The notes beneath the pieces were generated by a model. That model saw only the letters and a program-made list of their open reading frames with translations. It had not been told where the DNA came from and searched no databases. Position numbers and translations under genes: made by a program. From positions 864,001 through 928,000 of the forward strand of contig OZ244799.1 of the NCBI GenBank assembly GCA_965219955.1: a DNA stretch of 64,000 nt, given 5' to 3'. Positions 5,110 through 10,518 of this stretch are shown here, in pieces. The DNA is from a bacterium. GTDB taxonomy: Bacteria; UBA8248. Within the stretch, counting starts at the first letter, position 1; the number at the start of each line of letters is the position of its first letter.

Positions 5110-6513
5110 ATGGCGGGTCGTTTCGTGGTCGAAAACGCCTGCGTCCTCACTCAGAACGAGGCGCGTGATGTGCTCCCCCGCGCGTCGGTGCTGGTCGAGG
5201 ATGGCCGGGTCGCCGAGATCTCTGAATCCAGCATAGACGCAGGCGCGGCAGAGGTGATCGACGGCGAGGACATGGCCCTCATGCCGGGGCTGGTAAACGC
5301 CCACAGCCACATCATGTGCATTCTTTTGCGCGGCGGCCTGGGCGCGGATAGGCGGCTCATGGACTGGCGCCTGAACGTCATGGCGCCCGGCCAGGTCGCC
5401 TATACGCCCGGGGATGCGGCGCTCTCCGTCAAGCTCTTCGCGTGCGAAGCGATTCGCTCCGGCACCACGGCGGTGGTGACGAACGAGCGGGTCCCCATCC
5501 CGCTGGCCGAGGCGATGATAGAGGCCATGGACGATTCGGGCATGCGGAGCGTCTTCGCCTTATGCTTCAACGAAATGTCTCCTTCGGGAAAACTCGCCGA
5601 GCGGGCGCACTCCCACATCGCCGCCTGGGGGAAGACCTTTCCGCCGAGTCTCAAGACGAGGGATGAGGTGTTCGAGGAGACTTCCCACCTGGTGGACAAA
5701 TACCACGGTCGCTCCGGTGGCCGGGTTCTCGTCTGGCCGGGGCCGAACATCCCCGTCTACGTGAAGCCCGAGACATTCCGCGAGGTGGACGAATGGGCCG
5801 GCGAGCGCGGCCTTCGCGTCTCCACGCACGTATCGGAAGACCCCATGGAATCAGAAGTGGGCGGCCTTCCCGTGGTGCAGCACCTGGCGGCCTGGGGTCT
5901 GCTCTCGGAGCGTCTCGTCGCCGGCCACTGCATTCACTTGAGCGAGGAGGACATACGCCTCCTCAAGGAATCAGGTACGCAGGCCGTGCATCTGCCCTCT
6001 AGCAATATGTATCTGGGTTCGGGCGTCTCGCCGGTGCCGCGCATGCTGGGCTACGGCATCCCCGTGGCGCTCGGCACGGACAATGCGAACTGCAACGACC
6101 TCGTCAACATGTTCTGGGAGATAAGGCTCGCCTGCCTGCTCCACAAGGGCGTGCAGCAGGACCCCGCAGCCATCACGGCGCAGCAGGTGCTCGACATGGC
6201 CACGCGCAACGGCGCTCGCGCTCTCGGCCTGGAAGAAGAAATCGGGAGCATCGAGGTGGGCAAGCGGGCGGATATGATTCTGCTCGACATGAGCGGCCCC
6301 CACATGCACCCGAATCATCATCTGCCGTCCGTGCTCGCGTACCAGACCCACGGGACGGAAGTGCGCTGGGTCTGGGTGGAAGGCGAGCCGCTCATGGAAG
6401 CGGGACGCCTGAGCAGGATAAGCGAAGATGAGGAACGCGCGATTCGCGGGGAGGCGCAGGCGGCGTCCGCGGCTATCGTCGAGCGAGCGGGCCTGATTGT
6501 CCCCGGGACATGA
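5110..6513 (+). CDS. Amidohydrolase-superfamily deaminase/chlorohydrolase, AtzA/TriA-like
   Basis: PGLVNAHSH, ILLRGG, THVSE, AGHC, SNMYLGSG, GTDNANCND, GSIEVGKRAD; strongly resembles AtzA/TriA as recalled. Confidence 0.85.
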   Translation: MAGRFVVENACVLTQNEARDVLPRASVLVEDGRVAEISESSIDAGAAEVIDGEDMALMPGLVNAHSHIMCILLRGGLGADRRLMDWRLNVMAPGQVAYTPGDAALSVKLFACEAIRSGTTAVVTNERVPIPLAEAMIEAMDDSGMRSVFALCFNEMSPSGKLAERAHSHIAAWGKTFPPSLKTRDEVFEETSHLVDKYHGRSGGRVLVWPGPNIPVYVKPETFREVDEWAGERGLRVSTHVSEDPMESEVGGLPVVQHLAAWGLLSERLVAGHCIHLSEEDIRLLKESGTQAVHLPSSNMYLGSGVSPVPRMLGYGIPVALGTDNANCNDLVNMFWEIRLACLLHKGVQQDPAAITAQQVLDMATRNGARALGLEEEIGSIEVGKRADMILLDMSGPHMHPNHHLPSVLAYQTHGTEVRWVWVEGEPLMEAGRLSRISEDEERAIRGEAQAASAAIVERAGLIVPGT

Positions 6514-6561
6514 AACGGCGTTCGCCCATCGAGCGCCCTTGATGAATAAGGAGACTCAATC

Positions 6562-7668
6562 GTGTTTGATACCCAGGTGGTGAAGTTTCAGATGTCGGGA
6601 CCCGAGGACGTCTCGGGTCTTGCGGAAGCGGTGGCGGAAGGCCGCATTCAGGCGGCGGACATTCAGGCCATCATCGCCAAGACCGAAGGCAACGGCCGGG
6701 TGAACGACTATTCGAGGCCATACGCGCTCCATTCCTTCGAGGATTACATGATGGAGAAGCTGGGCCTCTCCCGCGCCGAGGTGCAGGGCATGTGCGCCAT
6801 GGTGATGTCGGGTGGCTGCGAGGGGATCATGAGCCCCCACGCGGTGGCCATTTCCAAGACGGACGTGGGCGACGCCGAAGGCCCCGGCGAGAAGCGCCTC
6901 TCCATGGGGGTCGCCTTCACCAGGGAGCTTCTGCCCGAGGAGTTGGGCACGATGGCGCAGGTGGACTTGGTGGCCGAGGCGGCGGAGGAGGCGCTCGCAA
7001 AGGCGGGCGTGGATTCGCTGGATGATGTGGGCTACGTGCAGGTGAAGTGCCCGCTTTTGACGTCGGACCGCATCAACGACGCGGCCTCGCGTGGCAAGAA
7101 GGTGGTGAGTACGGACACCACGCGCTCGATGAGCCTGTCGAACGGGTGCTCGGCTCTGGGTGCTGCGGTGGGCATCGGGGAGATCGACAGGGCGTCGTTC
7201 GAGATAACCGACGTGTGCAGCCGGGGCGACCTGTATTCGGAGATGATCTCCTGCTCGGCGGGCGTGGAACTCATGCGTTCGGAAGTCGTCGTCCTGGCGA
7301 ATTCCTCCCAATCGGTGAGCCGCTACAAGATCGGCCGGGCGGTGATGCAGCACCTGATCGACGCCGACGCCGTGAGGCAGGCGCTCAAAAACGCAGGGCT
7401 CGCCTTCGAAGGCCTGCCGGGTGCGGATGATTTGAGCAGGGTTGTGCACGCGTTCGCGAAAGCCGGCGCGCCCTGGGACGGCAGGCTTCTGGGCAAGCGC
7501 GTCACGCTGCTCACGGATTCCGTTCTGGGCACGCGGCCCGTGCGCGCCGTGGCGAACGCCGTAATCGCGTCGGTGGTGCAGGACCCGGCGGTCTACGTCT
7601 CGGCCGGTCTCGTCTTCCACCAGGGTCCCGTGGGCGGAGGGGTGGTTTCCGCCATCATCGAGGCGTAG
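6562..7668 (+). CDS. Ring-opening amidohydrolase, cyanuric acid hydrolase/barbiturase (AtzD) family
   Basis: KTEGNGxVND, MSGGCEG, VQVKCPLLT, SCSAGVE, HQGPVGGG family signatures. Confidence 0.92.
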   Translation: MFDTQVVKFQMSGPEDVSGLAEAVAEGRIQAADIQAIIAKTEGNGRVNDYSRPYALHSFEDYMMEKLGLSRAEVQGMCAMVMSGGCEGIMSPHAVAISKTDVGDAEGPGEKRLSMGVAFTRELLPEELGTMAQVDLVAEAAEEALAKAGVDSLDDVGYVQVKCPLLTSDRINDAASRGKKVVSTDTTRSMSLSNGCSALGAAVGIGEIDRASFEITDVCSRGDLYSEMISCSAGVELMRSEVVVLANSSQSVSRYKIGRAVMQHLIDADAVRQALKNAGLAFEGLPGADDLSRVVHAFAKAGAPWDGRLLGKRVTLLTDSVLGTRPVRAVANAVIASVVQDPAVYVSAGLVFHQGPVGGGVVSAIIEA

Positions 7669-7782
7669 AGACGGAGTGAAGGGCCGAATGGTCAGGGAGA
7701 AGGACGCCTGAAAAATTATGATGATAAGGTGTTGAAATATATGAGGCTGGGGTTTTCCGGCGCAATTGAGGACAAAAAAATC

Positions 7783-7811
7783 TTGACACGATTCCGGGCC
7801 TTTGCTAGGAT
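7783..7811 (+). promoter_or_regulatory. Sigma70 promoter TTGACA-17bp-TAGGAT with extended -10 TG
   Basis: TTGACA 7783-7788, 17-nt spacer, TGcTAGGAT; A-tract just upstream and IHF-like site near 7725-7740. Confidence 0.7.
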
Positions 7812-7850
7812 TTGAGCGTACAAATCGCAAGTAGCAAGAGGAGGGCTGTC

Positions 7851-7946
7851 ATGGTAAGAAACTTGATAGTAACCGCCTACAACACATCTCTCCGGAGGGT
7901 TCTGAAAACGGCTCACCACCGGAAGAGGGTTCTGAAAAAACCCTAA
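7851..7946 (+). CDS. Candidate 31-aa basic peptide MVRNLIVTAYNTSLRRVLKTAHHRKRVLKKP
   Basis: AGGAGG at 7839-7844, 6 nt before the ATG; too short for the ORF track. Confidence 0.4.
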   Translation: MVRNLIVTAYNTSLRRVLKTAHHRKRVLKKP

Positions 7947-7998
7947 ACTGCCCCTTGGTGTTACCTGAAACGGGACATTGAGGGAAATTCAAAAACAG

Positions 7999-8031
7999 CA
8001 GGCGGCGTCGACGGGCGCCGCCTGTTTTTTT
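7999..8031 (+). terminator. Rho-independent terminator
   Basis: caggcggcgtc-gacg-ggcgccgcctg followed by T7. Confidence 0.85.
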
Positions 8032-8096
8032 GCGCGCGTTTTTGGAGGAGGGGCCGGGAGACCCCATCTTCCCCGAAAGCGTCGAAGCCCTCCCTC

Positions 8097-8297
8097 CTCA
8101 CCCTGAGTTGCGGCGGAGCCGCGTATCGAAGGTCAAACGCGATTGATGAATGAGCGTTTGCGTATTGATTTTTCCTCACCCGCAATCGCTCCTGATGCGC
8201 CCCGGCGAACCCTCCTTCATCGGTCGGGTTCGTGCCCTTGATACGGCCCTTCGGGCCTACTCGGGATGAAGAGGTTTGGCGAAGCCGCGTATCGAAG
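8097..8297. repeat. Intergenic repeat mosaic (CTCACCCTGAG...GTATCGAAGG doublet plus TCAAACGCGATTGATGA-type ends)
   Basis: Same motifs recur at 10557-10610, 19635-19748, 23635-23782, 37230-37430. Confidence 0.75.
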
Positions 8298-8304
8298 AGG
8301 GGCA

Positions 8305-8742
8305 CTACTCTCCGTGGCCGGGCGGGCGGCCACGGTTCATCTCGTCGGGTTCTTCGGCGAACTCCATGCGGTTCTTGATGGCGTCTATCGTGAAATCCTC
8401 CTTGTCACCGGCCAGCTCCGGGTTCCACATCGGGTAGAACACCTCGAGGGCCATCCCCGGCTCATCGCTCACCAATTTCAACGTATGCATCGCGCCCGCC
8501 TTGACGTGCACCACGTCGCCAGGCCCGATTCGCCGCACCTCGTCTTCGAGCGTGAACTCCCACTCGCCCGCCTGGATGTAGAAGAACTCCTCGTGGTCGG
8601 GGTGGTTGTGCAGTTTGGACGGCGTGCCGCCCGGCTCGGTGATCAGGTGCTGCATCTGGATGTTGTCGCCGAAGATGCGCCTGTGCGCGACGCCGGGGCG
8701 GTCGTGGCTCAAGGGCAGCATGTCCCAGTTGTAGAAACTCAT
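8305..8742 (-). CDS. Cupin domain protein
   Basis: LHNHPDHEEFFYIQAG and GPGDVVHVKAGAMH cupin motifs. Confidence 0.85.
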   Translation of the reverse strand: MSFYNWDMLPLSHDRPGVAHRRIFGDNIQMQHLITEPGGTPSKLHNHPDHEEFFYIQAGEWEFTLEDEVRRIGPGDVVHVKAGAMHTLKLVSDEPGMALEVFYPMWNPELAGDKEDFTIDAIKNRMEFAEEPDEMNRGRPPGHGE

Positions 8743-8994
8743 GGTGTATTCCTTCGCGTGAGAGGGAGAAAATGATCGCTTTTGAGCATGGAGGGCTTCG
8801 TTGCGCCCGACCCGCTCGTTTTATGCCGGCAATGCCGGGCATTCTAGGGGCAGGCAGCAAGGTAAGACAATCCGCGCGCTCATCCTCATGAAAAAAGATG
8901 GGAGACCTCGAACCGCATAGCCGTGCGCGGTGCTGTGGGATACACTACGTCCATTCGATTTCCACTTTACATATTATCGGGAGAGGAGATGGTC

Positions 8995-10518
8995 ATGCGG
9001 TTCTCCGTTGTCGGCGGTGAGGGCTTCGACCAGGGGACGGACGCCCTGGTTTGCCTCATGGCGAAAGACGAGAAAAACGAGCAGTTGGAAAAGGTTCTCG
9101 GCGGCGCCCTGGCCTCCTTGCGCGCGCGCAAGGTTTTTGAGGGGAAAGAGGGGCAGGTCTCCGTTCTGCCCGTACCCGAGGGGGGTGGAGCGCCCGATTT
9201 CGTGGTTCTCGCAGGCCTGGGCGATGAGGCGTCGCCCGAATCGGTTCGCTGCTCCGGCGCTCTGGCGGCCAGGCGCGCCCGCGCCGAGGGTTTGAAGAGC
9301 ATCGCATTCTCGGCTTCTTCCGTTGTTGGCGATGACCTCGATGCGCGCGGGGCGGCCCAGGCGATTGTCGAGGGCGTGGGGCTCGGCCTCTACCGGATGG
9401 ACAAGTACAAGAGTGCGGATGATGACGAGAAGAGCGAGGTCTCGAGCGTCGTTTTGTGCGGGGGATCGGGCAGGAACCTGAGCGCGATGCGGCGCGGGGT
9501 GCGCTATGGCCGTGCTCTGTGCGAGGGGACGAATTACGCGCGCGACCTCATCAACACGCCCAGCAACGAGAAGCGCCCGCCCGCACTCGCCGAGATGGCG
9601 CGCGCGATGGCGCGGCGCGAGGGCCTTCGGTGCCGCGTGCTGGACGAGAAGCAGATGGCGAGGCAGAAGATGGGCGCGCTTCTCTCTGTAAGCCGGGGCA
9701 GCAGCGAGCCGGCTCGTATGGTCGTTCTGGAGTACAGGCCCCAGGGCGCGCGGACGAAGCCCATCGCCTTCGTCGGCAAGGGGGTGACGTTCGACACGGG
9801 CGGCATCTCCATCAAGCCGAGCGGCGGTCTCGAACTCATGACGACCGACATGAGCGGCGCCGCCGCCGTGTTGGGCGCGATGCTCGCCGTCGCGCGCGTA
9901 AAGCCCCGCGTGCCCGTGGTGGGCGTGGCCGGCCTCGTGGAGAACATGGTGGACGGCGACGCCACGCGGCCCGGCGACATCGTGCGCTCGATGAAGGGCA
10001 CGACGGTCGAAATCCACAACACCGACGCCGAGGGCCGGCTCGTCCTGGCAGACGCGCTCCATTACACGCGCGAGAAATACAAGCCCCAGTGCATGATCGA
10101 TCTGGCAACGCTCACGGGCGCCTGCATGGTGGCGCTCGGCCAGAAGGTGACAGGCATGTACGGCACGCACGATGAATTATTGGAGCGGGTACGCGACCTG
10201 GGCGAGCGCACCGGCGACCGCGTCTGGCACATGCCGCTCTTCCCGGAATACGGCGAGGCGATGAAGGGCAAGATAGCCGACATGTGCAACATCTCGGGCG
10301 CGCGCTGGGGGGGAGCAAACACCGCGGCGGCGTTTTTGCAGCACTTCGCCGACGAGACGCCCTGGGTTCATCTCGACATCGCGGGCCCCTCGCACACCGG
10401 AAAAGCCGGACCCTACCGCCCCGAGGGCGGCACCGGCGTGGGCGTGCGGATACTCGCGGAGCTTGCGATGGCCTGGAAGCGCCTCCCCGCACAGGAGGGC
10501 AAGGCCTACGGGTGTTAG
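8995..10518 (+). CDS. pepA: Leucyl aminopeptidase (M17)
   Basis: VGKGVTFDTGG, DMSGAA, NTDAEGRL, DLATLTGA, HLDIAG; AGGAG before ATG 8995. Confidence 0.95.
   Translation: MRFSVVGGEGFDQGTDALVCLMAKDEKNEQLEKVLGGALASLRARKVFEGKEGQVSVLPVPEGGGAPDFVVLAGLGDEASPESVRCSGALAARRARAEGLKSIAFSASSVVGDDLDARGAAQAIVEGVGLGLYRMDKYKSADDDEKSEVSSVVLCGGSGRNLSAMRRGVRYGRALCEGTNYARDLINTPSNEKRPPALAEMARAMARREGLRCRVLDEKQMARQKMGALLSVSRGSSEPARMVVLEYRPQGARTKPIAFVGKGVTFDTGGISIKPSGGLELMTTDMSGAAAVLGAMLAVARVKPRVPVVGVAGLVENMVDGDATRPGDIVRSMKGTTVEIHNTDAEGRLVLADALHYTREKYKPQCMIDLATLTGACMVALGQKVTGMYGTHDELLERVRDLGERTGDRVWHMPLFPEYGEAMKGKIADMCNISGARWGGANTAAAFLQHFADETPWVHLDIAGPSHTGKAGPYRPEGGTGVGVRILAELAMAWKRLPAQEGKAYGC

Follow-up and report, generated by a model that had tools for sequence, protein, structure and literature searches.

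A probable small-protein gene with a structured mRNA, conserved within three genera of a single bacterial family

Very small basic proteins that are specific to particular lineages are known among the ribosomal and ribosome-associated proteins (bTHX, bS22, bL37, and Sra), and in phage λ the N protein and boxB make up an arginine-rich peptide-hairpin pair. Small proteins are also encoded by dual-function small RNAs (sRNAs), of which passages in PMC12612679, PMC3526287, and PMC8672173 list SR1/SR1P, SgrS/SgrT, VcdRP/VcdP, Spot 42/SpfP, and AzuCR. Leader-derived sRNAs such as rnTrpL and the leader peptides TnaC and SpeFL are named in a passage of PMC12612679. In this study, we analyzed a 64-kb window, by which we mean the whole stretch of contig OZ244799.1 presented here, and examined a short element near its start that comprises a promoter, a Shine-Dalgarno (SD) sequence, a small open reading frame (ORF), a hairpin just past the stop codon, and a terminator. 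We show that these parts are conserved together as one unit in a narrow bacterial lineage. With a probability of roughly 70%, judged from sequence comparison, positions 7818-8031 of the window are transcribed independently as a monocistronic unit, and the product under selection is a basic protein of 31 residues encoded at 7851-7946.

The small gene and its transcription unit

The small ORF lies on the forward strand (7851-7946; 31 codons and a TAA stop at 7944-7946) and encodes MVRNLIVTAYNTSLRRVLKTAHHRKRVLKKP, a peptide with nine Lys or Arg among its 31 residues (29%), no Asp or Glu, and the sequence RVLK twice. The SD sequence AGGAGGG (7839-7845) ends 5 nucleotides (nt) upstream of the ATG at 7851, and the AGGAGGG, the spacer, and the ATG are almost invariant among 24 sequences. 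The initial annotation of this DNA had pointed to an AGGAGG ahead of an ORF with nine Arg/Lys, no acidic residues, and two copies of RVLK, all of which the sequence confirms, and had offered a small cationic peptide gene as one option, which codon-level evolution supports. The ORF is intact and free of insertions and deletions (indels) in all 26 loci (20 of 20 aligned loci of the genus and 6 of 6 further loci). Its length is exactly 31 codons in the 20 aligned loci and in two more genomes of the genus, and 32, 32, 32, and 35 codons in the sister genera g9 and g6. Indels do occur in the 5' untranslated region (UTR), in the apex of the post-stop hairpin, and in the spacer ahead of the terminator, but none falls within the ORF.

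In a table of 24 distinct coding sequences (CDS; L003 and L006 were omitted as near-identical to L002 and L001), residues R24, V27, L28, K29, K30, and P31 are invariant or nearly so, and each is encoded by two to four synonymous codons (CGG/AGA/CGA/CGC, GTN, CTG/TTG/CTC, AAA/AAG, and CCC/CCG/CCT). The stop codon itself varies among TAA, TGA, and TAG. When the window ORF was compared with 16 relatives by the Nei-Gojobori method, the ratio of nonsynonymous to synonymous substitution rates (dN/dS) was 0-0.40 over codons 15-31 and ~0.4-2.0 over codons 2-14. The raw counts follow the same division: over 136 pairs from 17 sequences, codons 15-31 hold 692 synonymous and 521 nonsynonymous differences and codons 2-14 hold 183 and 1131. 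Variation within codons 24-31 affects two columns at the first codon position, none at the second, and six at the third. The conserved part of the peptide (codons 15-31) reads RRVLKTAHxRKRVLKKP in the genus and takes the form [RK][RK]VL[KRT][TA]PxxxKRVLK[KNH]P in the sister genera; Pro is the final residue in 22 of 22 genus ORFs and stands 1-4 residues from the stop in g9 and g6. Because the ORF stays intact, its codons vary synonymously, and dN/dS and the codon-position pattern agree, we take the selected product to be a peptide with the conserved sequence RRVLKTAHxRKRVLKKP. The comparisons show the signature of purifying selection on the amino acid sequence of the C-terminal 17 residues, which carry a tandem [RK][RK]VLK motif ending in KKP. 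They also show the N-terminal 13 codons to be neutral as protein by the same measures, yet base-pairing with the SD and AUG region is retained there. A -1 frameshift at A-AAA-AAC and stop-codon read-through were both rejected, as the heptamer is not conserved (CTC AAG AAA, AAA AAT) and the downstream frames are unconserved and broken by indels.

Transcription of the unit would be driven by a sigma-70-type promoter on the forward strand (7783-7811), made up of TTGACA at 7783-7788, a 17-nt spacer, and TAGGAT at 7806-7811. In a consensus scan, it matches 10 of 12 positions, and a TG at 7803-7804, one base upstream of the -10 element, makes the latter an extended -10 (TGcTAGGAT). The CTTGACA of the -35 region is invariant across the 20 aligned loci of the genus, and the sister genera carry TTGACT-17-TATATT and TTGACC-17-TATACT at the equivalent place; strong expression signals of this promoter type are thus kept across genera. 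The transcription start is predicted near 7818, which gives a predicted monocistronic transcript of ~214 nt (~7818-8031). It ends in an intrinsic terminator (7997-8031) with a 13-bp stem at 7997-8026 that includes 9 GC, a loop of 4, and a run of seven T's; the same sequence is also terminator-like on the reverse strand. In the genus alignment, stem pairs are retained through compensatory changes (AU/GC at 191-214 and CG/UA at 197-208), and a strong terminator follows the small gene in every member. A near-consensus sigma70 promoter and a strong intrinsic terminator ~215 nt apart, as first described for this locus, are therefore both confirmed. In one sister-genus genome (G027), a terminator visible at L067 3178-3208 was overlooked by the terminator scan, an example of how a simple scan can miss clear terminators. 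Upstream of the promoter and outside the transcript lies a further conserved block of ~55 nt (7729-7782, forward strand; TGTTGAAATATATGG and on to an A-tract at 7775-7781), which can be aligned in 20 of 20 genus loci and is possibly an UP element, an operator, or a regulator site. The genus sequences diverge further upstream of 7729 and downstream of the terminator.

The unit is also found in RNA libraries. A word-index search with a 1301-nt stretch surrounding the unit identified 10 runs recorded as RNA that contain 4-17% of its words. Contigs over the SD-to-terminator stretch were present in all four runs examined, which come from four studies and are labeled marine, sponge, coral-reef, and sponge metagenome. 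These contigs (175-503 nt, with 0-3 differences) span 7838-8006, 7846-8036, 7834-8006, and 7832-8015, and all three of their differences within the ORF are synonymous (7886 A>G, 7901 T>A, and 7932 C>T). Over the unit, contig depth was 83, 940, 3.2, and 76.8, compared with 0-10 over the AtzD gene upstream and empty flanks. This contrast would suggest that the RNA is abundant and has discrete ends, but we do not use it as evidence because contig depth and uncovered parts can neither rank genes nor map ends.

The distribution of the gene is narrow. One copy of the 271-nt unit is present in the 4.28-Mb genome to which it belongs, and BLAST found it in 21 of 22 other genomes of the genus (g1); the sole genus genome without a BLAST match is a 79%-complete assembly in 320 contigs. 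The same search gave no match in 38 genomes from 29 other genera. A protein profile of the ORF, searched in six frames, was matched in 21 of the 22 g1 genomes, in three of the four from g9, and in the single g6 genome, with all 31 positions covered each time; none of 23 genomes of 12 further genera of the phylum had a match. Among 1.84 billion protein representatives, the profile recovered one true cluster (P0003, a 31-mer); a second match, P0004, was spurious, being a 4223-residue repeat protein rich in Glu and Lys. A scan of metagenome contigs yielded three loci, all identical to sequences of the set described here. The exact 31-residue protein is present, unnamed, in public gene-call collections. 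Within the genomes and collections searched, the small gene is restricted to three genera of one family.

Known families offer no relative. A search of Rfam 15 placed no family at its gathering score in the 64-kb window; the initial annotation had not recognized the family. At permissive thresholds, the best matches over 7600-8400 (STnc240, 26.5 bits against 55, and antisense_SR1, 23.4 against 45) cover the terminator only, as do others, including a CsrC match of 12 bits against a gathering score of 61. The peptide matched no Pfam family at E values up to 10, and all 17 members gave only E values of at least 0.086. PADLOC recognized 0 of the 17 members, PHROGs returned only E values of at least 0.013, and the ESM Atlas held no usable language-model neighbor. 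An NCBIfam match was due to chance (13 bits against a cut-off of 400), and the best PDB profile match (E of 0.4, to glutamate receptors) was meaningless. Canonical L34 (64.5 bits) and L36 (70.7 bits) are located elsewhere in the genome, so the small protein replaces neither, and the corresponding families, PF00468 and PF00444, did not match the peptide. The C-terminal motif is absent from the literature text that was searched, and among the Nitrospinota and sponge metatranscriptome literature matches listed, no paper concerns the small gene by title or abstract.

Conserved helices around the start and stop codons

Two helices, one on either side of the conserved codons, are retained across genera. 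The post-stop hairpin (7952-7984, forward strand) has 13 bp including five G-U pairs, a bulged A7963, and the apex UGAAAC at 7966-7971. In the window it starts 5 nt past the stop codon, and in G027 the hairpin and the stop codon overlap. Because of the five G-U pairs, its fold is strand specific (-15.7 kcal/mol, z score of -2.65, against -8.9 kcal/mol, z score of -0.51, on the reverse strand), which upholds the earlier remark that the third stem of the locus folds only on the forward strand. In a set of 18 distinct sequences from three genera, 95.7% of 234 cells are paired, a share that drops to 39-51% once the partner is shifted by 1-3 columns. Six of the 13 pairs have changed on both sides, and none of 500 column shuffles reaches the covariation score. 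The apex of the genus, CCUGAAACGG, follows U-G-N-N-A-C (GAAA, GAGA, GGAA, GUAA, and GACA), a GNRA-like pattern of loop variation, and is GCUGGCC in g9 and g6. A covariance model of the hairpin finds a single site in the genome at 55 bits, the next best reaching 16 bits with an E value of 4.9.

The 5' helix (7839-7878, forward strand) occludes the SD sequence, the spacer, and the AUG. Its inner part pairs 7845-7853 with 7862-7870 (codons 4-7); an outer part, present in the minimum free energy (MFE) structure only, pairs the SD GGAGG at 7840-7844 with CCGCC at 7873-7877 (codons 8-9). The helix folds at -13.8 kcal/mol (z score of -2.84) on the forward strand and at -5.5 kcal/mol (z score of +0.14) on the reverse strand, and 85.0% of 153 cells of the inner helix are paired against 19-66% when slid. 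Two pairs are compensatory between the genus and g9/g6 (CG to UA and UA to CG). These switches alter the encoded residues (Ile-Val to Met-Thr or Met), which fits the neutral dN/dS of the N-terminal codons and indicates that the RNA, not the protein, is conserved there.

Taken together with the coding evidence, a mechanism can be proposed in which the 5' helix would limit or gate translation initiation and the 3' hairpin would be partly unwound whenever a ribosome reaches the stop codon. The hairpin and terminator would stabilize the RNA or couple its fate to translation, and the peptide would act in trans through its conserved basic C terminus on a polyanionic partner. Judging from composition and expression signals, that partner would most likely be RNA (the ribosome or the peptide's own mRNA), a guess that we hold at well below even odds.

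Several points weigh against reading the locus simply as a small-protein gene. The RNA evidence consists of assembled contigs, which speak for presence only and not for strand, ends, or level, and DNA carry-over is possible. The covariation counts for both helices overstate independence, because the sequences are related and the structure was itself derived from them. It is the evolutionary coding signature that points to translation of the ORF, and the peptide has no match in Pfam, NCBIfam, PDB, PHROG, or PADLOC. Its AlphaFold2 model consists of a helix at residues 2-23 and a disordered basic tail, with a predicted local distance difference test score (pLDDT) of 74; the Pro/Gly-rich forms of g9 argue that the N-terminal helix is not essential. 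Some synonymous sites do not vary as those of a simple coding sequence might: AAG AGG (K25-R26) is frozen in 24 of 24 CDS, and CGG AGG and CTG AAA ACG are fixed in 18-19 of the 20 genus CDS. A search for a consistent pairing partner of these frozen sites found none. The ORF also uses AGA, AAA, ATA, and GTA, codons that are rare in four neighboring genes (AGA is 0 of 101 Arg codons there and AAA is 11 of 52 Lys codons, or 21%). Finally, the RNAs of g9 and g6 are ~335-340 nt long with a structured 3' UTR of ~195-200 nt. Frozen sites, codon use, and long sister-genus RNAs say that the constraints on the RNA exceed those expected of a simple mRNA.

In those sister-genus RNAs, only ~96-105 nt are coding, and the 3' UTR bears further conserved hairpins. 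It ends in a GC-rich inverted repeat and a T-run that are identical in 4 of 4 sequences and lie ~25 nt from the stop codon of the neighboring cupin gene. The apex of the g9/g6 post-stop hairpin is complementary to AAGCCAGC ~25 nt downstream (6 pairs, with 24 of 24 cells paired and wobble changes only), a possible pseudoknot judged from four sequences. A mid-ORF hairpin common to all genera was also considered and rejected, since by inspection the g9/g6 register does not fit the genus sequences.

Constraints of this kind would be expected of a dual-function RNA, in which, besides encoding the peptide, the transcript and especially its 3' domain would act in trans by base-pairing or protein binding. 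The frozen synonymous sites and atypical codon use favor such a role, as do the fold of the whole transcript (MFE of -81.3 kcal/mol, z score of -4.19, with none of 200 shuffles folding as well), the covariation of the 3' hairpin in three genera, and the mostly noncoding RNA of g9 and g6 with its conserved hairpins and possible pseudoknot. The architecture is also that of known dual-function sRNAs, as far as it is set out in passages of PMC12612679. However, no target was identified: predicted duplexes with the 5' regions of the cupin gene and pepA were no better than those of shuffled sequences (z scores of -0.23 and +0.89). The post-stop hairpin has no second copy in the genome, its apex differs between genera, and the conserved helices can be explained as cis-acting elements in translation control and stability. 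A dual-function RNA, one of the options first suggested for this locus, would need an independent transcript, for which the promoter, the terminator, and the contigs speak, and it may account for two RNA helices and some synonymous sites being held more constant than the peptide requires. We regard a trans-acting role as rather unlikely, and the small-protein gene with conserved structures in its mRNA is the reading that we prefer.

The convergent cupin gene and the repeated motif

A cupin gene (Cupin_2 in Pfam; 8305-8742, reverse strand) converges on the small gene and is always its downstream neighbor, a relationship that holds across the genus and in the sister-genus genomes G030, G027, and G034. 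Upstream of the unit and on the same strand, the genus has an Amidohydro_1 gene in tandem with a gene for a ring-opening amidohydrolase of the AtzD/TrzD type, from the family of cyanuric acid or barbiturate hydrolases (together 5110-7668), and beyond the cupin gene lies an M17 leucyl aminopeptidase gene. The amidohydrolase tandem is syntenic through most of the genus and is not found in g9. In g9 and g6 the upstream neighbor differs and the convergent cupin gene is kept; the aminopeptidase beyond it is confirmed in G030. The cupin protein itself is unusually conserved, with 145 residues, 59 invariant columns among 11 sequences, and an acidic C-terminal tail. Across four further genera of the family its identity is 75-82%, and a fifth has 66%; in none of these five genera was a homologue of the small ORF found adjoining the cupin gene. 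Because the cupin gene is present there without the small gene, the linkage may reflect inherited gene order and not function. A prediction of a peptide-cupin complex, made without controls, gave a score of 0.00 and a mark of 0.32 and speaks neither for nor against an interaction.

In g9, a single bidirectional terminator (L066 5263-5296) lies ~25 nt from the cupin stop codon, so that the small gene and the cupin gene probably share it. In the window, the spacer between the two genes (8036-8304) holds dispersed short repeat pieces (~8096-8132, 8131-8161, 8235-8269, and a 20-mer at 8278-8297) of a family resembling repetitive extragenic palindromes or miniature inverted-repeat transposable elements (REP/MITE-like), with dozens of copies of each, on both strands of the 4.28-Mb genome, among the matches listed. 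This dispersed repeat accounts for the RNA-contig fragments with loose ends there and for the difference in spacer between close relatives. In one RNA contig (X2, 503 nt), a variant whose spacer is shorter, the unit is continuous with the 3' part of the cupin gene; read-through and overlap of convergent transcripts would look the same there.

One reading that would tie these elements together is a self-contained ribonucleoprotein switch. An abundant structured RNA would encode the Arg/Lys-rich peptide, whose conserved twin RxVLK tail would bind the G-N-N-A-capped hairpin of that RNA, in the manner of N and boxB, or stall the terminating ribosome there, and would thereby set the stability of the RNA or the read-through of the bidirectional terminator into the convergent cupin gene. 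If it were true, the locus would be an antisense regulator under peptide control, for which there is no described precedent; we consider it unlikely.

A cis-acting leader or arrest peptide would work along similar lines, with the nascent C terminus stalling the ribosome near the stop codon, holding the hairpin open, and altering termination or read-through into the convergent cupin gene (antisense control). The mechanism of TnaC, SpeFL, and rnTrpL provides the background for this idea, and the locus may resemble leaders of the TnaC/SpeFL type. Conservation is confined to the C-terminal 17 residues with a neutral N terminus, and a terminal or near-terminal Pro is present in the ORFs of the genus and of g9 and g6. 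The hairpin, 5 nt past the stop codon or overlapping it in G027, falls inside the footprint of a terminating ribosome, given the general size of ribosomes, and the convergent arrangement with the cupin gene holds throughout, although the upstream neighbor changes. Against such a leader, a co-oriented downstream gene is lacking (a gene of the opposite strand comes before the next one on this strand), and every member has a strong terminator. Inspection revealed no antiterminator pairing of the 3' arm of the hairpin with the 5' arm of the terminator, and the cupin, at the identities given above, persists in five genera without the unit. An arrest peptide is thus very unlikely, and we continue to favor a small protein that is the selected product in its own right.

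The initial annotation described three hairpins with CTGAAA at or in their loops and considered, among its options, a protein-titrating sRNA with CsrB-like logic; for a noncoding RNA of this sort, the ORF would be incidental. The positions of the motif are as described (7902, 7932, and 7965), and three copies within 69 nt make a local cluster; across the whole window CTGAAA is unenriched, with 36 found and 31.6 expected. A fourth copy lies at 7708. Of the hairpins, the third stands, being alone of the three supported by covariation and conserved in three genera, but the first two do not. Hairpin 1 has a z score of -1.31, and 25 of 200 shuffles fold equally well; hairpin 2 has a z score of -1.78, 13 of 200 shuffles are equally good, and the reverse strand folds at least as well. 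Both stems are disrupted in relatives by synonymous codon changes; in several of them, Arg changes (CGG to AGA or CGA) break up the outer stem of hairpin 1. In the reading frame, motifs 1 and 2 fall in (GT)N CTG AAA, the codons for Val-Leu-Lys in the duplicated Arg-Val-Leu-Lys. The clustering of the motif would suit titration, as would its first copy (CUGAAAACGG), which is fixed even at synonymous sites in 18-19 of the 20 genus CDS and resembles the apex of hairpin 3. However, motif 2 varies synonymously to CTCAAG, CTCAAA, or TTGAAA and the apex of hairpin 3 is variable, so that a shared UGAAA loop motif is not conserved, and the ORFs of g9 and g6 are without CTGAAA. Substitutions in the ORF are codon periodic, with purifying selection on the peptide, and no Csr/Rsm or other Rfam family was found at threshold. 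Titration is therefore unsupported and highly improbable. From the codon comparisons, the CTGAAA repeats are by-products of a duplicated Arg-Val-Leu-Lys coding motif and of one hairpin apex. This sets right an attractive mistake, since what looks like a recurring loop motif can mirror a peptide motif that recurs.

A small protein of the type I toxin kind, with translation kept off by the structure of its mRNA, is hardly credible, for although the SD and AUG are sequestered in a conserved helix and the unit is small and stand-alone with a stable, highly folded mRNA, the protein has no hydrophobic membrane-spanning segment (9 of its 31 residues are Lys or Arg, and the g9 forms are Pro/Gly-rich), a promoter scan of 7000-9000 lists no reverse-strand promoter within 7783-8031, the gene is single-copy and syntenic and not mobile, and PADLOC identified none of the 17 members.

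Comparison with known systems

On the evidence of its sequence evolution, the locus is probably a conserved small-protein gene on a structured RNA and a new small-gene family within the known class of small-protein and candidate dual-function transcripts. Its mRNA carries conserved structures that may be regulatory or stabilizing, and the RNA may be dual-function. Genes this short routinely escape annotation, and here comparative evidence alone reveals a selected microprotein in an uncultured lineage. The overlap of protein- and RNA-level constraints (N-terminal codons that covary with the ribosome-binding region, frozen sites, and a post-stop hairpin) is unusually clear and makes a clean case for the study of ORF/RNA coevolution, with nothing yet pointing to a new principle. 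The locus would also add a candidate dual-function RNA beyond the few model phyla known for such RNAs.

Several described systems resemble parts of the locus. It shares with CsrB and RsmZ a small size, a structured RNA that stands alone, and a short motif repeated locally; unlike theirs, its repeats are codons of a selected peptide, with only one in the apex of a conserved hairpin, and are not kept in the sister genera, and the locus has no Rfam match. Its short ORF with conserved C-terminal residues and a Pro-stop, followed directly by RNA structure and a terminator, recalls the TnaC and SpeFL leaders, which differ in that the present locus has no co-oriented downstream gene and no alternative antiterminator fold was found in it. 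Purely by analogy, the short basic peptide and, on the same RNA, a hairpin that closely precedes a terminator and has an apex of the G-N-N-A type resemble λ N and boxB; the hairpin apex differs in the sister genera. With bTHX, bS22, bL37, and Sra, the peptide would share, again by analogy, a length of ~25-45 residues, a strongly basic character, a restricted taxonomic range, and strong expression signals; it has no homology to them in Pfam or NCBIfam, and at 29% Lys and Arg it is less basic. The dual-function sRNAs have no sequence or Rfam relationship to the locus, and its conserved helices, unlike theirs, flank the start and stop codons and may act only in cis. Nevertheless, it has in common with them an independent transcript of ~200-340 nt with its own promoter and intrinsic terminator, a conserved ORF of ~30-40 codons, and the conservation of both peptide and RNA features across relatives.

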